Shown: positions 1 to 46,337, numbered from the stretch's first letter. The stretch is 64,000 nucleotides of DNA from Symbiobacterium thermophilum (GCA_020725105.1 DYFQ01000003.1:12136-76135), one strand, 5' to 3'. The notes: a model not told the origin generated them from the sequence alone. Translations and numbers: made by a program.

Positions 1-183
1 GTCCAGGAGGCCCAGCTCCTCGGCCAGTTCGAACTTGAGCACCTCGGCCGGGTTGTCGGGATCCGGTTCCAGCTTCTCCTCGGGCTTCCGCTTGCGCTTC
101 TTTCCGGACCTCCCCCGCCCGCCGCCTCCGCCGTCACCGGCGCCGTCCCGATCCGGCTGCTCCACTCCGTGAGGCCTGACCAT
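1..183 (-). CDS. Small acid-soluble spore protein, alpha/beta-type (runs off the window edge)
   Basis: Not in the ORF track. ATG at 183 after GGAGGTGG. Translates MVRPHG...KKRKRKPEEK...EVLKFELAEELGLLD; KxElAeELGL is the SASP first helix. Confidence 0.75.
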   Translation of the reverse strand, partial: MVRPHGVEQPDRDGAGDGGGGGRGRSGKKRKRKPEEKLEPDPDNPAEVLKFELAEELGLLD

Positions 184-254
184 GCCACCACCTCCCCGGG
201 GTAGTCTCCCCAGCGATTGCCAGCCAATCCAGGACATCTCGCGCCGGCCGCCGG

Positions 255-300
255 AAAGGAACGCCGCCCGGTACCCGGTACGGCCGGGCTCCGGGCGGCG
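255..300 (-). terminator. Probable intrinsic terminator after the 26-aa peptide gene
   Basis: Minus-strand stem CGCCGCCCGG...CCGGGCGGCG followed by TTCCTTT. Confidence 0.55.
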
Positions 301-327
301 ACCCCAGAGGTTCAGTCTCGGTTCCGG

Positions 328-408
328 CTACCTCCACTTCAGCCAGGCTCCGCTGGTGAGGACCAGCGCCGCCAGCACGCCGAGAAGATACAGGGCCCGC
401 CACCGCAA
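328..408 (-). CDS. Unannotated 26-aa signal-peptide-like protein MRWRALYLLGVLAALVLTSGAWLKWR
   Basis: RBS GGAGGTGA 5 nt before TTG; stop TAG at 328-330; basic N-region, hydrophobic core, SGA, then WLKWR; downstream terminator. Confidence 0.7.
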   Translation of the reverse strand: MRWRALYLLGVLAALVLTSGAWLKWR

Positions 409-453
409 CCGGGTCACCTCCCCTCAACTCCTGCGCTGCCTCCTCCCCGCGGG

Positions 454-488
454 AAAAGGGGCCCCCGGGGGGCCTGCCGGCCCCCCGG
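454..488 (-). terminator. Possible terminator after the HD-GYP gene
   Basis: Hairpin CCGGGGGGCC-GGCA-GGCCCCCCGG, with TTTT 7 nt later (imperfect spacing). Confidence 0.35.
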
Positions 489-548
489 AAGGCTAGCGGG
501 GATGGGGGCTGGCGAACTCCTCCAACGCTACGGCCATGTCCACCGGCC

Positions 549-1748
549 TCACCGGTCCAGAACTTCCACGATGAACCTGGTCTGGTGCTCCCTGGCCGCC
601 AGGTCCAGCTTGTAGAAGCTGGTCGGCAGCCGTCCATAGGCGTCCCGGACCACCCGGATCACCGGGCGGACCAGCGGAATGACCCCGACCTCTTCCACGA
701 TGCCCTCTTCCCCCGTGCTGAGCCGCACCTTGGTGCCGACCGGGTAGGGGACCACCGTAGCGCAGAAGCTTTGAACCAGCTGGTAGTCGAACTCGAAGCC
801 GGCTCCGGCCATGAGAAAGTCCAGCGCCTCGTGGGGCAGCAGGCGGCGGCGGTGAGGCCGGTCCGACACCAGCGACGTGTACACGTCGGCCAGCGCCACC
901 AGGCGGGCCGAGACGTGGATCTCCTCGCCGCGCAGGCCCTGAGGGTAGCCGGAGCCGTCGTACCGCTCGTGATGCTGCAGCGCGATGGCCTTGGCGAAGG
1001 GAGAGAACCGCTGGTTCGCCTCGAGGATCCGGACGGTGCCGACGGGGTGCCGCCGGACCAGCTCCAGTTCCTGACGGGTGAGGCTTCCCGGCTTCCGACG
1101 AACCTCCCTGGGCACCAGGGCCATGCCCAGGTCGCAGAGAAGCGCGCCCAGACCGATGTCGAACACGCGCAGCCCGAGGCCGTAGTTCTTGGCCAGCGCC
1201 ATGGACACCACGGCCGTGTTGAGCGAGTGAACCACCAGGTGATCCTTGAGGTACTCCTCAAGGCTCCGGTGGCTGACCAGATTGACCACCTTGGAGTTGT
1301 GGTAGGCCAGGTCAAGCTGGATTTCTTTCACCACCGCCGCGATCTCGCGGTGGGGCAGCTCGACCTCGTCGGCGGCCCCGGCCGCTTCTACCTGCTCGAA
1401 GACGCGCCTCAAGAGGTTGACCGCGGCCCAGCGGGTCTCGTCGGAGATGGGCTCGTCCTTCTGGATGGTTCGTTCTTCCCGCCGGGGCGACGCGTGCACG
1501 TACACTTCGGGCACGCCAGCTTCCAGCAGCCGCCGGATGTGCTCCGTCGTCAGCTCGCGGCCGTCGGCGAACAGGTAGACCCCGTCCGAGGTGAACACGG
1601 GCCGGGCCAGCCGGGTTCCCGGGGCCAGGCTCGCCGTGGCCACCCGCATGACGGGCCGGGTCTGGTCGGCGCCCGTCCAGCCGTCCGCCGCCAGATCCGG
1701 CTCGCCGGGCTCAAACATGTCGGCCGGCTCGTGTATTGACCGCTGCAT
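549..1748 (-). CDS. HD-GYP domain protein with a degenerate active site (HD->CD); start uncertain
   Basis: HSLN, LLCDLGM (canonical LLHDIGK), HHERYDGSGYP, ADVYTSL, RPHR, and a C-terminal YPVGT..V.LS.GE module. Confidence 0.85.
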   Translation of the reverse strand: MQRSIHEPADMFEPGEPDLAADGWTGADQTRPVMRVATASLAPGTRLARPVFTSDGVYLFADGRELTTEHIRRLLEAGVPEVYVHASPRREERTIQKDEPISDETRWAAVNLLRRVFEQVEAAGAADEVELPHREIAAVVKEIQLDLAYHNSKVVNLVSHRSLEEYLKDHLVVHSLNTAVVSMALAKNYGLGLRVFDIGLGALLCDLGMALVPREVRRKPGSLTRQELELVRRHPVGTVRILEANQRFSPFAKAIALQHHERYDGSGYPQGLRGEEIHVSARLVALADVYTSLVSDRPHRRRLLPHEALDFLMAGAGFEFDYQLVQSFCATVVPYPVGTKVRLSTGEEGIVEEVGVIPLVRPVIRVVRDAYGRLPTSFYKLDLAAREHQTRFIVEVLDR

Positions 1749-2106
1749 CCTGGCTCACCAGCCGTTCCAGGGAGGCCAGCAACTTCTCGGGCCGGAAGGG
1801 TTTCAGGATGAAATCCCTGGCGCCGGCCCGCAGCGCTTCGACGACCATCGTCTGGTGGCCCATGGCGCTGCAGATGACGATCCTGGCCTGGGGATCCATC
1901 CGCCTGATCTCCTTGACCACTTCGATCCCGTCCATGGCCGGCAGCGTGATCTTCAGCAGCCCCACGTCCGGCCGCAGGCGCTGGTACCGTTCGAGCGCCT
2001 CCTGACCGTCCTCGGCCTCGTCCACCGTGTACCCCCGTTCCCTCAGGAAACGGCTGTACCGGGTGCGGGTGAAGCGACCGTGGTCCACCAGCAAGATCTT
2101 CGCCAT
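1711..2106 (-). CDS. CheY-like single receiver domain lacking the phosphoacceptor Asp
   Basis: Aligns by eye end to end with Bacillus CheY (EAEDG, MDGI, CSAMGHQTMV, AGARDFILKPF) but has VDH and LLKITLP. Confidence 0.85.
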   Translation of the reverse strand: MAKILLVDHGRFTRTRYSRFLRERGYTVDEAEDGQEALERYQRLRPDVGLLKITLPAMDGIEVVKEIRRMDPQARIVICSAMGHQTMVVEALRAGARDFILKPFRPEKLLASLERLVSQDAAVNTRAGRHV

Positions 2107-2196
2107 CACGCATCCCCCGCCGGGCAGGGAGGGTGGCCTCGGCCCCCCGGACCACACCGGCCCGACCCTGGGGCCACCCCTTCCCGCCTCCGTCTT

Positions 2197-2700
2197 CTAG
2201 TACTCCTCACCCACGATCACCTTGAGAGCCTTCATCGCCTCGGTCCAGAGGATCGAGCCGTCACGCAGGTACGAGCCGGGCGTCGGCTTGCCTTCGATCT
2301 GCAGGATCGACGCTGCCCGCAGCCTGGCCTCGATCCACGGGACGGACTCGATCCACGGGATGCTGGTCATGTCCACCGTGTTCGAGGTGCCGTCCGGCCG
2401 CGTGATCGTGACCAGGTTGGTGTTGTCCCCAAGGTTCGAGTAGACGGGCCGGTAGGCGTCCAGGTACCCGGCGCCCTGGACCGTCGCGTCGAAACCCCGG
2501 TCCTCGGCCGTCCCCTTCAACCGATTCTTCACCTGGTTGAGGGTGAGGCTCGGGTCGCGTTCCAGCATGAGCGCGACGGTGCCAGCCGTGAAGTCGGCCG
2601 CCTGCCGAACGCCGCGCTCGCCCCCGTGGCCGACCCCAGGCTCAGGAGCACCAGAGACAAGACCAGTGTCAGCGCCAAAAGCCGCCTGATCTTTTCTCAG
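2197..2700 (-). pseudogene. Remnant of a secreted S8 (subtilisin) protease: frameshifted signal peptide joined to the C-terminal part
   Basis: RBS GGAGGTGA then CTG. Signal peptide KIRRLLALTLVLSLVLLSLGSATGASA lies in a shifted frame. AGTVALMLERDPSLTLNQVKNRLKGTA..QGAGYLDA matches the post-catalytic-Ser part of subtilases. No catalytic triad. Confidence 0.75.
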
Positions 2701-2730
2701 GTTCCGCTCACCTCCCCGCCCAGGATTCCC

Positions 2731-2784
2731 TCAGAGCCACGAGATGATCTTCTCCAGCAGGCCGTACAGGAGCCGTTGGAGCAC
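2731..2784 (-). CDS. Unannotated 17-aa peptide MLQRLLYGLLEKIISWL
   Basis: Strong RBS GGGGAGGTGG 6 nt before GTG; stop is followed shortly by the protease RBS. Confidence 0.5.
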   Translation of the reverse strand: MLQRLLYGLLEKIISWL

Positions 2785-2914
2785 CGGGCTCCACCTCCCC
2801 ATTGCCGCGGGTTGCGCACGGTGGCCACGGAGCCACCTGACGTTCCGGTTGACGCCTGAGCTGGACGCATCGCCGGAGCGGAAGGGCCGAATGCTCCCTG
2901 ACCTCGCCCAGCGA

Positions 2915-3151
2915 TCACCTTCCACTGACGTCGTGCACCAACGCCGCCCGGTGGATGGTCCGGATCGTGGTCGGGTCCAGGCCCAGTTCCCGCGCCAGTT
3001 CCACGGCGAAGTGCTCCACCCGGGTGGAGTGGCCGTAGGTGTGCGGGTCCTTGGCGTTCACCAGGTAGGAGAGGGCCCGGATGATTGCCGGGGTCGAACC
3101 GCCATCAGCGGTGTCTCTTGTCGGTGGCTCCCGACGGCGCCGGATAATCAT
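2915..3151 (-). pseudogene. Truncated HD-GYP phosphodiesterase fragment
   Basis: IRALSYLVNAKDPHTYGHSTRV...ARELGL...AALVHDV, then a stop 3 codons later; no GYP half follows. Confidence 0.8.
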
Positions 3152-3167
3152 GGCACCACATACACGT

Positions 3168-3183
3168 TGCAAGAGTCGTGCCA
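3168..3183 (-). promoter_or_regulatory. Sigma-54 -24/-12 promoter
   Basis: TGGCACGACTCTTGCA matches the TGGCACG-N4-TTGCW consensus exactly. Confidence 0.9.
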
Positions 3184-3278
3184 GCGGGAAAGCATCCGCC
3201 GGACGGCGGGGGTGAGGGAAACTACTGCTAGAAGCCGCGAGGCTCGAGGCTCGGGGGCTGCTCAGGGGCTCCCGGAGG

Positions 3279-3332
3279 TGTCCGGATTCCGGACATGTCC
3301 GGTTTCCGGACACCCTGTCCGGAGACCGGACA
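3279..3332. promoter_or_regulatory. Three palindromic enhancer (UAS) sites, TGTCCGG-N3-CCGGACA
   Basis: Perfect copies at 3279-3295, 3296-3312 and 3316-3332, about 120-175 bp upstream of the predicted sigma-54 start and directly after the activator stop codon. Confidence 0.8.
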
Positions 3333-3334
3333 CT

Positions 3335-5026
3335 CTACCCGGTCAGCCCGTACCGGGAGAGCTTCTCGTAGAAGCTGGAACGGGCGAGGCCCAGGATGCG
3401 GGCGGTCTTGGCCTTGTTCTGGCCGGTGGCTTCCATTATTCGCGCGATCAGGTGGCGTTCCACCGTGGCGACAATGTCTTCCAGGGTCCCGCCCTCGGCC
3501 AGTACGGCTGCCACCTCCGCCACCAGCGCCCGCGGCGCCAGCGGGGCGCTGGCGTCGGGCAGCGGGTCGCGCCCCGCCGGCTGACGTGTTCCGGCTTCCC
3601 CGGTGGCGGGCTGCGGGCGGACCTCCAGCAGCAGGGCGGTCAGGTCGTCCACGGGAAGGTCGGCGGAGAGGACGGCCGCGTCCCTGACGACCTCGTCGAG
3701 GGGCAAGCTCTCGACCAGGTCGCCGCCGACGGCGACACCCTCGGCAGCCTCCCGGCCGTTGCCGGAGAGATGGGGCCGCAGGGCCTCGGCGGTCATCACC
3801 AGCCCGTCCGAGAGGAAGTAGGCGCGCTTCACCACGTTCTCCAGTTCGCGGACGTTACCTGGCCAGGGCTGCTCGGCCAGCAGTTCCAGAGCGTCGGGGG
3901 AAAACTGCTTCCGCAGGCCGGCTGCCGCCCCGGGTCCCCGGTTCAGATCCTCCAGCAGCCGCACGGCGATGAGGGGGATGTCCTCGCGCCGGTCCCTCAG
4001 GGGGGGCAGGGTGATGGTGATGACGGCCAGCCGGTAGTAGAGGTCGTCCCGGAAGCGGCCCCGGGCCACCATGGCCTCCAGGTCCTGGTTGGTGGCGGCG
4101 ATGACCCGGACGTCCACGGCGACCGGCCTGAGGCCCCCCACCCGCTCGACCTCCCGCTCCTGCAGGGCCCGGAGCAGCTTGGACTGGAGCGGCAGCGGGA
4201 TGTCGGCCACCTCGTCCAGGAACAAAGTCCCGCCGCTGGCCAGTTCGAAACGGCCCGGTTTGCCCGTCCTGGCCGCGCCGGTGAAGGCGCCGGGCTCGTA
4301 GCCAAATAGCTCGGCCTCGAACAGTTCTCCCGGCACGGCCGAGCAGTTGATGGCCACGAACCGGCCGGCCGAGCGGTCGGACAGGTGGTGTACGGCCCGG
4401 GCGAACAACTCCTTGCCCGTGCCGCTCTCCCCTGTCAGGAGCACCGTCAGGTCGGAGCGGGCAGCCCGGGCGGCCAGACCCTTGGCGTGCCGGATGGCCC
4501 GGGAGACGCCTTCGATGCGCTGGAGTCCCCAATCGCCGTCGTCGTCCCCCCTGGCCTTGTTACCTCCTCTTTCAACCGCCCCGGGCGGGCCGGGTTCCGG
4601 CCGCGCCCCGGCTCCTGCCGCCGGGGCCGGGGCCACTTCAGCGGGCGCGAGCTTCACCAGCAGGCCGTGGCCATTGGGGCCGGCCGGCACCAGGCGTTCC
4701 CGGACCAGCCAGGTGCGGCGGCCCAGGACGGCCAGGCCTTCGCTGGTCCTTTTGTCGCCGCCGGCGCGGCCACCCGCGACGAGGGAGTCTCCCTGCACGT
4801 AGGTGAGCAGGCCCAGCAAGGGGCGGCCGACCAACCGGTCGGGTCGCTCCTGGCACGCCCGGGCAAACGCCTGGTTGGCCCGGATCACCCGTCCCCGTAG
4901 GTCGGCGATGCAGATGGGTTCTGGGACCTGGTCGAAGACGGCGGCAAACAGCGCCACCATCCGGTCGGCCAGTTGCCCTCCCGCCGTCGCGGCGGCCGGC
5001 GGAGCAGCCTTCCCGGCCAAGCTCAA
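3335..5026 (-). CDS. PAS-domain sigma-54-dependent transcriptional activator (bEBP)
   Basis: PAS-like N-terminus, GESGTGKE, GAFTGA, LFLDEV, WPGNVREL, C-terminal Fis HTH (NKAKTARILGLARSSFYEKL). Confidence 0.95.
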   Translation of the reverse strand: MSLAGKAAPPAAATAGGQLADRMVALFAAVFDQVPEPICIADLRGRVIRANQAFARACQERPDRLVGRPLLGLLTYVQGDSLVAGGRAGGDKRTSEGLAVLGRRTWLVRERLVPAGPNGHGLLVKLAPAEVAPAPAAGAGARPEPGPPGAVERGGNKARGDDDGDWGLQRIEGVSRAIRHAKGLAARAARSDLTVLLTGESGTGKELFARAVHHLSDRSAGRFVAINCSAVPGELFEAELFGYEPGAFTGAARTGKPGRFELASGGTLFLDEVADIPLPLQSKLLRALQEREVERVGGLRPVAVDVRVIAATNQDLEAMVARGRFRDDLYYRLAVITITLPPLRDRREDIPLIAVRLLEDLNRGPGAAAGLRKQFSPDALELLAEQPWPGNVRELENVVKRAYFLSDGLVMTAEALRPHLSGNGREAAEGVAVGGDLVESLPLDEVVRDAAVLSADLPVDDLTALLLEVRPQPATGEAGTRQPAGRDPLPDASAPLAPRALVAEVAAVLAEGGTLEDIVATVERHLIARIMEATGQNKAKTARILGLARSSFYEKLSRYGLTG

Positions 5027-5251: not shown

Positions 5252-5632
5252 TCAGGACCGGCGGTCCACCACCGCCGGCTGCGGGTTACCCCCTCGGAGG
5301 CAGGTAAAATAGGCTCGCCCTCCCTGGCGGGCTTGCTCCAGCTTCCGGGAGGCGACCAGCGCCTGCCTCACGGCCTCCCGGAGCAACGCTTCCCCTTCCC
5401 GCTGCAGGGCCAGGAGTTCCCGGGCCACTCCGAGGTCACCCTCGGTCAGGTCGCCCGGCGCCTGGCCCGTTGCGGGCCGATCGGCGAGCATCAGCCCCAG
5501 CCGGGCGATGCCGTCCTCGCGCAGGGCCAGCAACTCCTGGACCTGGTCGGCGTCGGCCACCCGGGCGGCTTCCACCAGCCGCCTCGATGTCAGGTGCAGC
5601 TCCCTGAGCAGCGTCCGCAGGCCCCGGGTCAC
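5252..5632 (-). CDS. FliT-like flagellar chaperone
   Basis: Helical 126-aa protein overlapping the fliS stop; the usual fliT position. Confidence 0.5.
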   Translation of the reverse strand: MTRGLRTLLRELHLTSRRLVEAARVADADQVQELLALREDGIARLGLMLADRPATGQAPGDLTEGDLGVARELLALQREGEALLREAVRQALVASRKLEQARQGGRAYFTCLRGGNPQPAVVDRRS

Positions 5633-42937: not shown

Positions 42938-44560
42938 CTAGTCCTCCGAAAGCCAGGTCCGCAGAAGTTGGGCCACCGACTCGGGTTGCTCCCTGGCCAG
43001 CCCCTGAATCCGCTCGCGCCGCTCCAGCCGCTCCTGCTCCTCAGGAGAAAGCTCGATCTGAGGGAGGCCGGCAAAGCCCATGGCGGACGACCCGGCGCCT
43101 ACCCGTCCGGTGCCGGCCGCGCCGACGGCCAGTTCAGCCCGGCGGAACGCCCCGTAACCCGGAGCGACGCCCCGCGCCGGCCCGGTGACAGGCTCCGCCG
43201 CCCGCCGCCGGCGGCCGCGGAACCACCAGATGGCCAGGAGTGCCGCGGCGGCGATGGCCCCCCGGGTCACGTTGGATCGCAGCCGCTGCTCGGCCGCGGC
43301 CTGGGCTTCCATGTCCGCCTTGACCGCTTCGGCCATGGTGGTGTCGAAGGTCATCCCGGTGACGATGATGGAATCACGCCGTTCGGGGTCCACGCCGATG
43401 GCCGCCGCCACCGTGGCCTCGATGGCCTGCTGCTCGGCGGGGGCAAGCTGGCGATTGACCACGACGGCCACCGACAGCCGGCTGACGCTGCCCGGCGCCA
43501 CCACCAGCCGCTCGCGGATCTCGTTGAGTTCGAAGTTCTTGACCACCTGGGAGCGCTCGGCAGCGCTTTCCCCCGCCTGGCCCGCCGGCGCCTGGTAGGT
43601 CGGAAGGTTGGACGAGGCGCCGGGAACGCCGCCGGCCGACTGGGACGTGCCGCGGAAGGTCTCCTGCAGTTCCTGCATGGACCGGAGAATGCCCTGGGTG
43701 TCGCGGACCGGCTCGAACAGGCTCTTGTCCACCACCCGCTCGTCGAAGTTGAGCTGGGCGGTGACCCGCGCCACCACGTTGCCCGGCCCCAGGACCTGCT
43801 CCAGGAGACCCTGGAGGCTCCGCTCCAGCTCTCGCTGGAACCGCTGCTGGACGTCGAGGCGGGAAAGGGCGGCCGCGCCCCCCGGCGACTCCAGGTCGGC
43901 CGAAAGGATCCGGCCGGTGGTGTCGACGACGGTGACGTCAGCGGGGCGTAACCCTTCGACGCTGGAGGCGACCAGGTGAACGATGCCCCGCACCTGGCCG
44001 GAGTCCAGGATGGCGCCCGGCCGCAGCTTCACGAAGACCGCCGCCGTCGCCGGGCTCGACTCGCTGACAAAGAGCCGTTCCTGGGGTAGGACGATGTGGA
44101 CCCGGGCCTCCTCCACCGCCGCGATCTTGCGGATGGTCCGGGTCAGCTCGCCCTGGAGCGCCCGGACGTAGTTCACCCGGCGCTCGAACTCGGTGGCGCC
44201 GAGCTTGGTGCGGTCGATGATCTCAAACCCCACCACGCCGCCCCGGGGCAGCCCCTCGCCGGCCAGTTGCATCCGCAGCGCGTGCACCTGGTCGGCCGGC
44301 ACCATGATGGCGCTGCCACCGTCGCCGATCCGGTAGGCCACCCCCCGGTCGTCCAGCTTCTTCAGGATCTCGCCGGCGTCGGACTCGTCGAGCCGGGCGT
44401 AGAGGGTGACGTACTCGGGCTGGCCGGCGTACATGACCACCCACAGCACCAGCGCCAGCACCACGGCGGCACCGATCGCCGCCACGGCGCCCTTCTGGCG
44501 CCGGGTCAGGCTCCGCCACGTGTCCAGAAGTCCCTGACGCGGGTTGCCGGTCTCAGCCAT
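42938..44560 (-). CDS. fliF: MS-ring protein FliF
   Basis: GFEI, RALQGEL.RTI, ARVHIVLP, ASSVEGL. Confidence 0.96.
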   Translation of the reverse strand: MAETGNPRQGLLDTWRSLTRRQKGAVAAIGAAVVLALVLWVVMYAGQPEYVTLYARLDESDAGEILKKLDDRGVAYRIGDGGSAIMVPADQVHALRMQLAGEGLPRGGVVGFEIIDRTKLGATEFERRVNYVRALQGELTRTIRKIAAVEEARVHIVLPQERLFVSESSPATAAVFVKLRPGAILDSGQVRGIVHLVASSVEGLRPADVTVVDTTGRILSADLESPGGAAALSRLDVQQRFQRELERSLQGLLEQVLGPGNVVARVTAQLNFDERVVDKSLFEPVRDTQGILRSMQELQETFRGTSQSAGGVPGASSNLPTYQAPAGQAGESAAERSQVVKNFELNEIRERLVVAPGSVSRLSVAVVVNRQLAPAEQQAIEATVAAAIGVDPERRDSIIVTGMTFDTTMAEAVKADMEAQAAAEQRLRSNVTRGAIAAAALLAIWWFRGRRRRAAEPVTGPARGVAPGYGAFRRAELAVGAAGTGRVGAGSSAMGFAGLPQIELSPEEQERLERRERIQGLAREQPESVAQLLRTWLSED

Positions 44561-44577
44561 CGGCTAGCGAAACCCTC

Positions 44578-44907
44578 CTACACCTGGAGCCGCATGATCT
44601 CCTGATACGCTTCAAGCGCCTTGTTGCGAAGCTGAACCGTCAGGTTCAGCAGCAGGTTGGCCTGCTCGGTGGCGATCATCACCTGGTGCAACTCCACCGG
44701 CTCCCCCGCCGCCAGGGCCATCGACAGCTTGTCCGCGTCAAGCTGGGCCTGATTGACCCGGGCCACCGCGTCGGCCAGCCACTGGCCGAAGCCCGGCGTC
44801 CCGGCCAGCGCCTCGCCGGCCCGCCCCGGGCCCGCTGTCCCGTCGCCGACGCGCGGCATGGGTACGCCGAGGCCCGGTCCCTGACGCTGGATGGGATCCA
44901 CCGGCAT
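44578..44907 (-). CDS. fliE: FliE
   Basis: LHQVMIA...RNKALEAYQEIMR. Confidence 0.95.
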   Translation of the reverse strand: MPVDPIQRQGPGLGVPMPRVGDGTAGPGRAGEALAGTPGFGQWLADAVARVNQAQLDADKLSMALAAGEPVELHQVMIATEQANLLLNLTVQLRNKALEAYQEIMRLQV

Positions 44908-44988
44908 CCTGCCCCCTCCTCAGTCACTCGGTGCCGGTCGCGGGCCAAGCGGCCGGCCCCGCCGGCCCGGCGGCACGCGGCCATGCGT

Positions 44989-45513
44989 CTAACTCCGCCC
45001 GATGTCCAGCGCTCTGGAGGCCATGGCCTTGGCCGCGTTGATGGCCGTGACGTTGGCCTCGTAGGCGCGGGTCGCCGAGATCAGGTCCACCATCTCCGTC
45101 ACCAGGTCCACGTTGGGCAGGGCCACGTAGCCGTCGGCATCGGCGTCGGGGTGCGTCGGGTCGTACTGAAGCTTCGGCGGCGACTGGTCCTGCGCGATGG
45201 CCACCACCCGGACGCCCCGGCCCGCCCCGGCTTCAAAAAGCCCGGCCCCGAAGGGCCAGGGGCCGGCGGGTCCGGCGTATCCCGCCCACGCCTGGCCGTT
45301 CATGCCGCCCGCGTGCAACAGGGCGGCGGCAAACGGCGGCACCGGGGCGGCCGCCTCCCGGGGCTGGTAGACCGGCATCTGGCGCCGGTACGGCCCGCCC
45401 TCAGGGGTACGCGTCGTGTTGAGGTTGGCGATGTTGTTGGCAACGATCTCCAGCCGCAACCGCTCCGCGGTCAGCGCCGAGCCGCTCGCCTCAAGGGCCC
45501 GGAAGATCCGCAC
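44989..45513 (-). CDS. flgC: Rod protein FlgC
   Basis: ANNIAN.NTTRT, YDPTHPDA, PNV, RAYEAN. Confidence 0.96.
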   Translation of the reverse strand: MRIFRALEASGSALTAERLRLEIVANNIANLNTTRTPEGGPYRRQMPVYQPREAAAPVPPFAAALLHAGGMNGQAWAGYAGPAGPWPFGAGLFEAGAGRGVRVVAIAQDQSPPKLQYDPTHPDADADGYVALPNVDLVTEMVDLISATRAYEANVTAINAAKAMASRALDIGRS

Positions 45514-45516
45514 CTG

Positions 45517-45942
45517 CTAGCGCCTCCCCTCGAAGATCACCGACTGCCACTGCAGAAAGCGCCGGGAGATCTGGCGGGCCAGGGCGTCGTACCACAGCTG
45601 GTTCTCGGCCAGCCGGATCATCTCGGCTTCCAGGGTGACGTTGTTGCCGTCGGCCCGCTCGGCCGAAGCCGTGTCCCGTAACACCCGAGGGGCAACCCCT
45701 CCGGGGTCGGCGGACGGGGTACCAAGGTGCCGGGGGTGGGTCAGGACAAGGGGAACCGGCTGCCGGCCCCGGTCGGCCAGGGCCCGGCGGAGGTCATCCT
45801 CGAACCGAACTTCCAGGCGCTTGTACCCAGGCGTGTTGGCGTTGGCCAGATTGTGAGAAATGGCCTGGTGGCGCATGCTGCCCGCGTCCAGCGCGCGCCG
45901 GACGACGCTCACCACCTGGTCCTCGAACAGCCTGCCCATCAC
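45517..45942 (-). CDS. flgB: Rod protein FlgB
   Basis: SHNLANANTPGYK, DGNNV. Confidence 0.95.
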   Translation of the reverse strand: MMGRLFEDQVVSVVRRALDAGSMRHQAISHNLANANTPGYKRLEVRFEDDLRRALADRGRQPVPLVLTHPRHLGTPSADPGGVAPRVLRDTASAERADGNNVTLEAEMIRLAENQLWYDALARQISRRFLQWQSVIFEGRR

Positions 45943-46039: not shown

Positions 46040-46145
46040 TGTTCCTTCGGCAGCCCGGCGATCCTGGCCCCGGCCACTGGCCGGGTGCGGTAGACCCGTA
46101 GCTTTGCGTCCCTGCCTTTCGGCGGGTTTGCCTTTATCGGGAACC
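46040..46145 (-). ncRNA. c-di-GMP-I (GEMM) riboswitch, proximal copy
   Basis: GGCAAACCCGCCGAAAGGCAGGGACGCAAAGCTACGGGTCTA...GCCGGGCTGCCGAA. Confidence 0.92.
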
Positions 46146-46192
46146 CGTATCCGGTTGTCGTCGCGGACTCGCCGTGCGGCCCCCCCCCCAGC

Positions 46193-46240
46193 AAAAAAGC
46201 CCGTCGTTCGCTGCCCGGCTGCCGCGAGACGACAGGCTCT
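46193..46240 (-). terminator. Expression-platform terminator of riboswitch 1
   Basis: AGCCTGTCGT...ACGACGGGCT then TTTTT. Confidence 0.8.
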
Positions 46241-46243
46241 GCC

Positions 46244-46337
46244 CTCGGCAACCCGGCAGCCATCGCCCGGCGTCGGCCGGGCCTTAGGCCCGCGGCTTTG
46301 CGCCCCTGCCTTTCGGTCAGGTTTGCCCTTGGCGAGT
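46244..46337 (-). ncRNA. c-di-GMP-I (GEMM) riboswitch, distal copy
   Basis: GGCAAACCTGACCGAAAGGCAGGGGCGCAAAGCCGCGGGCCTAA...ATGGCTGCCGGGTTGCCGAG; P1 stem CTCG/CGAG. Confidence 0.92.

Follow-up and report, generated by a model that had tools for sequence, protein, structure and literature searches.

A sigma-54 control unit and the probable remains of a chemotaxis operon behind it in a flagellated bacterium

A flagellar gene cluster in Symbiobacterium thermophilum (GCA_020725105.1, DYFQ01000003.1:12136-76135; these 64,000 nucleotides, with a G+C content of ~70%, are hereafter called the window) is linked to a run of short and apparently damaged genes, including a sigma-54 activator gene, pieces of a protease and of HD-GYP enzymes, and a CheY-like receiver, which raises the question of whether these genes form a signalling system of their own or are what remains of another one. 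The first-pass annotation had favoured the former and proposed that peptides carrying Trp motifs act as quorum-like signals that tune cyclic di-GMP (c-di-GMP) turnover and motility. We analysed positions 328-5026, where all genes concerned are encoded on the minus strand, and each sequence feature on which that proposal was built is indeed present there. Our reading is a different one: with a probability of roughly 85%, the segment consists of an intact sigma-54 control unit and the eroded remains of the operon under its control. It is a relic, built of ordinary gene families and distinguished by an unusual degree of targeted loss.

The host assembly comprises 2.74 Mb in 73 contigs and is 96.8% complete (~3% of marker genes missing). 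It was compared with 40 relatives, which belong at closest to the same class and match the activator in its AAA+ core only, and with a class sample of 201 genomes. When the 399-aa HD-GYP protein encoded at the distal end of the segment was used as a query, 127 of these 201 genomes matched at E<=1e-30; six matches stood out (E 1e-68 to 1e-83, 40-45% identity), all of them stronger than the best paralog in the host genome (E 4e-58). Syntenic loci were recognised in six relatives (G024, G047, G065, G051, G029, and G018). Positions 300-3400 were also compared with the proteins of the relatives by blastx, with a threshold of E<=1.

The sigma-54 control unit and the operon behind it

The activator gene (3335-5026, minus strand) is intact and encodes a bacterial enhancer-binding protein (bEBP) of 563 aa with a PAS-AAA+-HTH architecture. 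Pfam searches returned Sigma54_activat (PF00158, E 1.3e-67), AAA_lid_14, and the Fis-type HTH_8 (E 6.4e-9), together with a short PAS match (PAS_8/PAS_4/PAS) at residues 26-75, and the translation holds both the GAFTGA loop and a GESGTGKE Walker A motif, as befits a bEBP. Searches of the host genome identified it as the only true bEBP, two further PF00158 matches being weak and interpreted as AAA+ proteins of other kinds. Its identity to the bEBPs encoded at the syntenic loci of G024 and G065 is 54-55% for the AAA+ core and 59-64% for the HTH domain. The rpoN gene is present in a single copy on contig C36 (DNA-binding domain, E 7e-55, within a 477-aa open frame).

Directly after the bEBP stop codon lie three exact copies of the palindrome TGTCCGG-N3-CCGGACA (3279-3295, 3296-3312, and 3316-3332), which are presumably the upstream activating sequences (UAS) bound by the bEBP. 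A genome scan detected these three copies alone in 2.74 Mb, and any exact copy was found in 9 of the 201 class genomes. They are located 96-164 bp upstream of a -24/-12 promoter element, TGGCACgactcTTGCA (3168-3183, minus strand), one of three strict sigma-54 matches genome-wide. Matching elements occupy the same relative place in G024 (TGGCACgcctcTTGCT) and G047 ((T)GGCACgggtcTTGCT), and palindrome half-sites are present between the bEBP gene and the promoter in both genomes, exact in G047 and with 1-2 changes in G024.

Several observations concern the surroundings of this unit and its elements elsewhere. A second strict sigma-54-like element, TGGCACttggtTTGCC, is located outside the window (G000:C2:57823-57838, minus strand), ~40 nt upstream of an ATG, accompanied by AAAGGTGG, that opens a membrane-protein-like open reading frame (ORF); no palindrome with up to two changes was detected within 300 bp upstream of it, and it may represent a second sigma-54 target. 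In G047, a second exact palindrome (identical 17 bases) precedes a secreted-protein-like ORF (L163, G047:C27:22465-22481), with no convincing -24/-12 element after it on that contig. None of 80 bEBP-relative loci, taken from 512 relatives in a species collection, has an HD-GYP or S8 match (E<=1e-5) within 7 kb; these loci are uninformative on synteny because they represent paralogs, at most 41% identical over their full length. A 126-aa ORF without Pfam match (5252-5632, minus strand), between fliS and the bEBP gene, occupies the place of a 131-142-aa ORF in G024 and G047 and shows no BLAST similarity to it at E<=1e-6.

The loci of the relatives indicate what this unit may once have controlled. 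In all six, cheY, cheB, a cheR-sized gap, and an ortholog of the distal HD-GYP gene follow one another in the same order; fliD and fliS are located upstream in G024, G065, and G051 (fliS in G047), and the bEBP gene comes after fliS in G024, G047, and G065. By Pfam, the G024 locus encodes a GAF-GGDEF-HD-GYP sensor, CheW, CheA, CheC, CheD, CheY, CheB, CheR, and CheX. In G047, a 544-aa protease of the S8 (subtilase) family, whose tail consists of nine TILW[SA]D units, is encoded exactly between the sensor and cheW, and this is the one genome with an S8 gene among the syntenic loci. The likeness to the Bacillus-type chemotaxis operon (cheW, A, C, D, Y, B, R, X, at the end of a flagellar cluster) lies in these loci, which hold the same families after fliD-fliS. 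G024 and G047 differ from that operon in placing a bEBP, a sigma-54 promoter, and a c-di-GMP riboswitch before a sensor gene that precedes the che genes, whereas in the window cheY is the sole remaining che gene at the locus and its product lacks Asp57 and Asp13.

From the bEBP stop to the HD-GYP stop, the window measures 2.8 kb and G047 ~12 kb, from which we infer at least five deletions amounting to ~9-10 kb in total. The ancestral operon would have run from a c-di-GMP-I riboswitch leader through a MASE9-GAF-GGDEF-HD-GYP sensor gene and an S8 gene with tandem Trp hexapeptides to the che genes, with cheW-cheA-cheC-cheD-cheY-cheB-cheR, the HD-GYP gene, and cheX as its distal part. In the number and order that we reconstruct, the deletions would have taken the leader with most of the sensor, the catalytic core of the protease, cheWACD, cheBR, and cheX. 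Transcription started by the bEBP and sigma-54 would still pass through the debris and reach cheY and the distal HD-GYP gene, and the promoter that reads through in this way would be the only recognisable target of the unit.

The sensor gene is represented by a 78-aa stump (2915-3151, minus strand), which was assigned by Pfam and homology. It matches HD (E 2.5e-4) and HD_5 (E 1e-3) at profile positions 2-51 of 170 alone: the start of the HD-GYP domain is retained up to ..LVHDV and a stop follows HDVSGR, so that the complete domain (~170 residues) is absent. Compared with the 818- and 819-aa sensors of the relatives, to whose residues 628-687 it is 61-65% identical, the stump gene has lost the riboswitch leader, ~615 N-terminal codons, and ~130 C-terminal codons. 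The G024 sensor (819 aa) is GAF-GGDEF-HD-GYP by Pfam and MASE9 reaches 37.8 bits, above the cut-off, in the G047 sensor (818 aa); the stump thus probably resembles the known MASE9-linked HD-GYP proteins by derivation from a protein of MASE9-GAF-GGDEF-HD-GYP type. A c-di-GMP-I riboswitch precedes the sensor gene in G024 and G047 (87 and 71 bits), and none was detected at the leader position of the stump in the window, where the ORF starts ~17 nt past the -12 element and has no Shine-Dalgarno sequence.

The protease has fared no better. Three-frame translation detected an orphan signal-peptide stretch (..KIRRLLALTLVLSLVLLSLGSATGASA, approximately 2614-2690, minus strand) of a former S8 protease, and out of frame with it, at 2197-2613 (minus strand), the C-terminal third of such a protein, which matches residues 405-533 of the 544-aa G047 protease (37% identity, E 1e-18). 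The piece begins just past the catalytic Ser; the Asp180 and His212 regions are gone and the position aligned with Ser407 differs, hence no catalytic triad is left, and Pfam returned nothing for its 123-aa ORF. Its tail consists of four unequal hexapeptide units, SIPWIE-SVPWIE (in tandem, 2329-2364), SILQIE, and SILWTE, and therefore lacks the identical tandem units that end the G047 protein, although a query of the G047 tail alone matches the remnant at E 3.2e-5. Two full-length S8 paralogs on contig C59 of the host genome support the family assignment. Of a co-oriented neighbouring gene for a membrane GGDEF or HD-GYP enzyme, the HD-GYP stump is present beside the remnant, the membrane part of that gene having been deleted. 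A recent duplication was considered as the origin of the fragments and ruled out, as their paralogs within the host genome are 34-49% identical only.

An artefact of assembly or binning might be suspected behind such truncations, since this metagenome-assembled genome lies in 73 contigs, and yet we consider it extremely improbable. Nine of 12 listed sequencing runs (four studies) cover the stretch fully or partly, and two of these runs may represent the source sample. Logan contigs from four runs of three studies (one run possibly the source sample) align to it with 99-100% identity and without reported indels. Contigs of run X3, from another study, cover 1129-2633, 2713-2933, and 2904-3083, and those of X5 cover 1829-2172, 2687-3121, and 3132-3385; between them they cross the cheY/S8, S8-internal, and stump junctions, which shows that the truncations were not created in the host assembly. 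These scars recur in independent assemblies.

Other points weigh against an eroded operon, or against a simple form of it. The nearest genomes share only the class, and the ancestral state is read from relatives that are 40-65% identical and that vary among themselves: G024 has no S8 gene, G065 has neither S8 nor sensor, and G051, G029, and G018 have no bEBP at the locus. No trace of cheW, cheA, cheC, cheD, cheB, or cheR was found in the short spacers by blastx (E<=1), so that the deletions rest on gene order. With 73 contigs and ~3% of markers missing, che genes elsewhere are not fully excluded. Finally, three perfect palindromes, an intact promoter, the sole bEBP of the genome, and an intact rpoN speak for continued use of the unit, and the image of a wreck consequently fits the proximal genes and not necessarily cheY and the distal HD-GYP gene.

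CheY, the distal HD-GYP protein, and the small ORFs

The cheY relic (1711-2106, minus strand) encodes a full-length receiver of 131 aa (Response_reg, E 7.6e-29, positions 1-110 of 111), 42-57% identical to the products of the relatives' cheY genes. His replaces Asp13 (codon 2080-2082) and Lys replaces Asp57 (codon 1951-1953), so that the protein has VDHG and LLKITLP in place of the VDDA and LMDITMP shared by all six orthologs, in which the Asp pair and D57 are kept. The receiver fold, Ser87, and Lys109 are thus retained, whereas the phospho-acceptor Asp57 and the complete acidic pocket Asp12/Asp13 are not. All four aligned runs, one of them possibly from the source sample, differ from the window at positions 1953, 1961, and 1969, within cheY codons 52-57: the runs have GAG (Glu) at codon 57 where the window has AAG (Lys), and GTG at codon 54, for the Val that the orthologs also carry, where the window has GGG (Gly); the third change is silent. 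Two alleles of a dead acceptor site therefore coexist in near-identical populations, and Asp57 is gone in every strain seen. It is plausible that Glu57 is an intermediate on the way to Lys57.

The distal HD-GYP gene (549-1748, minus strand; 399 aa, probable start ATG 1647-1649; HD_5 E 1.2e-26) is the ortholog of the HD-GYP gene that closes the che operon in the relatives (38-44% identical). Its His-Asp dyad has changed to Cys-Asp (Cys codon 1134-1136), giving LLCDLGM, as against LHD[LV]GM in five of six orthologs; the HHE and GYP motifs (HHERYDGSGYP) are retained together with the HD_5 match, which marks it as a member of the family. The sixth ortholog, in G018 (L127 6442-7698), reads LSDLGL and also has no dyad His, and the che genes are present in that genome; the dyad change is thus not tied to the loss of chemotaxis.

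That loss extends beyond the locus. With the Che proteins of G024 as tblastn queries, CheW, CheA, CheC, CheD, and CheR were not found in the host genome, CheB gave receiver-domain matches only, and a CheX-like gene was detected on contig C38. Pfam searches for CheW, MCPsignal, CheR, and CheB_methylest returned 0 matches each in this 96.8%-complete genome. CheA carries one CheW domain, and in view of the missing tblastn match and the 0 CheW-domain matches, no cognate CheA for the CheY relic was detected. The assembled genome is without chemotaxis kinase, coupling protein, receptor, and methylation enzymes. Judging from gene order and orthology, CheY and the distal HD-GYP protein appear to be the last survivors of a chemotaxis operon of the form cheW-A-C-D-Y-B-R/HD-GYP/cheX, an origin that the first-pass annotation had missed.

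Two small ORFs had also been assigned roles by the first-pass annotation. One encodes 17 aa (..EKIISWL; 2731-2784, minus strand) and lies in a scar of ~230 bp that separates the stump from the orphan signal peptide; the other, after the HD-GYP gene, encodes 26 aa (..GAWLKWR) with one hydrophobic helix (328-408, minus strand; 29 aa if started from 417) and has a well-placed GGAGGTGA 5 nt before its TTG start. The 17-aa ORF gave no similarity to the relatives' proteins by blastx at E<=1, the 26-aa ORF has no match in the relatives' loci, and the scars at 2690-2915 and 417-549 returned nothing but noise (CheR, E 0.46) at the same threshold. Trp is present among the last seven residues in 63 of 295 (21%) window ORFs of 17-70 aa, so Trp ends such as those of the two ORFs are expected by chance. 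Given this frequency and the lack of homologs, the ORFs are unremarkable, and there is no reason to count either as part of any system; nothing supports the 17-aa ORF as a gene, whereas the 26-aa ORF may be one. A GC-rich hairpin with TTCCTTTCC after the 26-aa ORF was not called by a simple terminator scan, and no terminator is claimed there. Beyond it, a 127-aa ORF at 1-237 (minus strand), which continues in L018 11989-12372, contains the stretch ..AEVLKFELAEELGLL.., which may resemble alpha/beta-type small acid-soluble spore proteins, and is followed by a LysM/amidase-like ORF of 519 aa.

These results bear directly on the proposal that the nine elements together make up a single Trp-peptide quorum module by which the host adjusts c-di-GMP and motility. 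The elements are co-oriented behind one sigma-54 promoter, and S8 proteases with Trp repeats do pair with membrane HD-GYP enzymes in other genomes (see below). Nevertheless, the S8 remnant lacks the catalytic core and is joined out of frame to its signal peptide, just 78 aa are left of the sensor, the small ORFs have neither homologs nor conserved counterparts in the syntenic loci and share their Trp ends with 21% of short ORFs, and CheY and the distal HD-GYP protein belong to the che operon in six relatives. We therefore regard a working module of this kind as very improbable. Trp-peptide signalling cannot run in the host genome, since both protease and sensor are destroyed. What holds from the earlier proposal is the pairing of protease and sensor, realised elsewhere, and the decay of this copy, which it had recognised and which the stump, the split S8 gene, the CheY without acceptor Asp, and the HD-GYP protein with Cys-Asp bear out; the membership of the small ORFs, CheY, and the distal HD-GYP protein is not supported.

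Tailed S8 proteases and their membrane partners in other genomes

An S8 match at E<=1e-40 was detected in 51 of the 201 class genomes, with 84 matches listed. All 84 were scored together with their flanks; four cut ORFs were excluded, leaving 80 complete ORFs for the counts. Twelve of these 80 proteases end in exact tandem units of 5-6 residues holding W, F, or Y (TILWSD, QVYWD, QSYWD, QSYWE, NAYWE, NTLWG twice, NVLWG, AMWSN, NVFFD, NVLFE, and NVYYD). A GGDEF or HD-GYP domain is encoded within 3.5 kb on the same strand for 12 of 12 tailed and 4 of 68 untailed proteases (Fisher's exact p = 3e-11, which is overstated as the 12 are not independent, being spread over 7 genomes, 5 genera, and 3 families), and the tailed S8 genes are mostly 1-170 bp from the neighbouring gene. 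One of the excluded ORFs (L236) carries NVFFE three times and lies ~70 bp before the HD-GYP gene of L171.

Similar arrangements are found outside the class sample. A search with the G047 tail among 5.8 billion proteins yielded eight S8 proteases with repeats of the type [ST][ILV][ILV]W[SAT][DE], one of them named Acidobacteriota. In a metagenome scan, both of two relatives had a hexapeptide-tailed S8 gene directly before a MASE9-HD-GYP-GAF gene (MASE9 at 28 bits for L257 and at 20 bits, below the cut-off, for L258), and the complete protein L257 has exact tandem blocks. The first-pass annotation had suggested looking for recurrent co-occurrence of an intact membrane-sensor HD-GYP and an S8 protease with Trp repeats, and this co-occurrence is what we observed (12/12 in the class sample and 2/2 in the metagenome loci). 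A counter-example in the reverse direction is G024, which has the sensor and no S8 match at E<=1e-40. A search with the tail alone in a phylum sample of 401 genomes gave 13 weak matches and no new tailed protease, the matches being the window's own remnant, spurious frames, and GlmU-type-looking proteins.

The partner enzymes of families f21 and f34 are proteins of 863-930 aa with a multi-pass membrane module, GGDEF, a second membrane module, and HD-GYP; MASE9 scores above E 1e-3 in two of the seven fused partners, and the G047 and L257 partners also score MASE9. A hidden Markov model of the N-terminal membrane module, built from the seven f21/f34 partners, does not match the G047 and G024 sensors, whereas Pfam MASE9 matches that of G047. 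In two genomes the partner is split into two genes: in G166 (L167) and G127 (L168), HD-GYP and GGDEF are encoded by separate membrane-protein genes, and behind these lie two tandem S8 genes whose units differ (NTLWG with NVLWG or AMWSN). In G163 (L171 and L236, G163:C40), a single sensor gene has a tailed S8 gene on either side.

In each of 13 tails, different codons encode units of identical protein sequence, which argues that their sameness has been kept by selection and does not reflect recent slippage. Unit type tracks cassette lineage across genera (QSYWD/QSYWE and NVFFD/NVLFE), and three cassettes that share a genome have pairwise identities of only 38-41%. Protease identity and partner identity are correlated (r = 0.88, 21 pairs of seven cassettes), a pattern that co-inheritance of neighbouring genes would equally give.

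What the tail may do can be approached by comparison with known systems. Yeast alpha-factor is cut from its precursor by Kex2, and the Bacillus Phr peptides are cut by subtilisin, Epr, and Vpr. The cassettes share with such multi-copy precursors the identical short tandem units, the S8 protease, and a unit that differs between paralogous cassettes; they differ in that the repeats form the C-terminal end of the protease itself, without spacers, and that the neighbour is a c-di-GMP enzyme and not a Rap/RNPP or two-component receptor. We tentatively suggest, while holding it to be rather doubtful, that an intact cassette is a self-contained peptide signal: a secreted subtilase would carry several identical aromatic 5-6-mers as its own C-terminal tail, the tail would be cut after the aromatic residue, and the hydrophobic peptides would be sensed within the membrane by the MASE9 domain of the neighbouring enzyme, thereby shifting the balance of GGDEF and HD-GYP. 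Paralogous cassettes, such as those with QVYWD, QSYWD, and NVYYD in G150, might then represent separate channels.

Subtilisins prefer large hydrophobic residues at P1, and this preference, together with the ligand binding within the membrane that has been suggested for MASE9, would fit such peptide sensing. The MASE9 paper by Galperin and Chou suggests such binding and names no ligand, describes short outer loops only, contains 0 occurrences of the word 'protease', and does not report the S8 pairing (bioRxiv 10.1101/2021.11.05.467447). A 2022 census of c-di-GMP stimuli lists, in its accessible part, two quorum-sensing ligands and no peptide pheromone. In the literature searched, at the level of listings and abstracts, we found no description of an S8 protease with such a tail or of its pairing with a c-di-GMP enzyme, although one may exist elsewhere. 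All component families (bEBP, HD-GYP, GGDEF, MASE9, S8, and Che) are known; what appears to be new is the recurrent pairing of protease and sensor.

A structural or anchoring role of the tail has to be weighed against signalling. In the LapD/LapG system, a membrane c-di-GMP receptor controls a periplasmic protease; the protease, LapG, is of the cysteine type, and the receptor, LapD, combines degenerate GGDEF-EAL domains with a large periplasmic domain. The cassettes resemble it in that a membrane c-di-GMP protein is encoded beside a secreted protease, but Pfam shows Peptidase_S8 and GGDEF/HD_5 in them and not the LapD/LapG families. By analogy, the membrane protein might hold or release the protease at the cell surface through its repeat tail, which is possible, if on the whole unlikely. 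Strict adjacency (in all 12 class loci and both metagenome loci) would suit it, as would the irregular spacing of DTILWT units in the database proteins P0004-P0008, as in structural repeats, and weak tail matches (E ~3e-3) to proteins of the GlmU-type left-handed beta-helix, judged by sequence with no family search. These matches, obtained per genome with the TILWSD tail as a query, fall in the hexapeptide-repeat end of GlmU-like proteins of 466-472 aa (L250, L252, L253, and L256), and they probably reflect shared six-residue periodicity only. On the other side, units identical in protein sequence differ in codons, and MASE9, according to the paper cited above, has short outer loops only. AlphaFold2 predicted the catalytic domain of the G047 protease with a predicted local distance difference test (pLDDT) score above 90 and the tail with 25-34, which also speaks against a structural element, although low pLDDT from an alignment of 25 sequences does not prove disorder. 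Complex prediction for the G047 MASE9 region (residues 1-280) and tail (465-544) gave no support and is evidence neither way.

If the cassettes do act as peptide signals, the window would hold a dead peptide channel, wired by sigma-54 to chemotaxis genes. The pairing of tailed S8 and MASE9 offers a concrete candidate ligand, one accessible to chemical synthesis.

Flagellar control by c-di-GMP

The flagellar cluster of the window has two c-di-GMP readouts, as had been noticed in the first-pass annotation. Tandem c-di-GMP-I riboswitches (46045-46337, minus strand; 71.7 and 70.7 bits) lie directly ahead of ORFs at 42938-45942 (minus strand) that are read as flgB, flgC, fliE, and fliF by translation, and the sole PilZ-domain match of the genome (22780-23130, minus strand; E 5.6e-12) is located inside the cluster. 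The core flagellar operon thus seems to be gated by c-di-GMP in a bacterium without chemotaxis genes.

In this setting, the leftovers at the locus might still constitute a working minimal module, a view that is compatible with their being a relic. The PAS domain of the bEBP would sense a cue, and sigma-54 would induce a phosphorylation-independent CheY-like protein and a modified HD-GYP protein, which would target either the flagellar switch or the pool of c-di-GMP by which the flgB riboswitches are gated. We take this as a real possibility, though one that we would place below even odds. None of the control elements (bEBP, three exact UAS, promoter, and rpoN) is damaged, and the sole bEBP and the sole UAS cluster of the genome are gathered here; cheY and the HD-GYP gene are full-length while every neighbour has been deleted; the receiver keeps Lys109 and Ser87; the HD-GYP protein keeps HHE and GYP, and Cys can ligate metal; and both codon-57 alleles, Lys and Glu, are non-Asp. 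However, the occurrence of both Lys and Glu at the acceptor position in near-identical strains is equally compatible with relaxed constraint, the relatives are too distant for a ratio of nonsynonymous to synonymous substitution rates (dN/dS), and the first ORF begins ~17 nt after the -12 element, without Shine-Dalgarno sequence. Phosphorylation-independent CheY-like proteins exist, for example the Cle proteins of Caulobacter. The CheY of the window is likewise a flagellar-linked single-domain receiver that is unable to use the usual Asp, but it has no evident c-di-GMP-binding extension and is a clear cheY ortholog left after the loss of CheA.

Whether its last two genes are debris or a module put to new use, the eroded operon belongs to a flagellated subsurface bacterium that appears to have dropped the whole chemotaxis pathway and to have kept a sigma-54 switch, a CheY that is not phosphorylatable at the usual site, and flagellar control by c-di-GMP. 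It would thus represent a natural case of motility regulated without chemotaxis.

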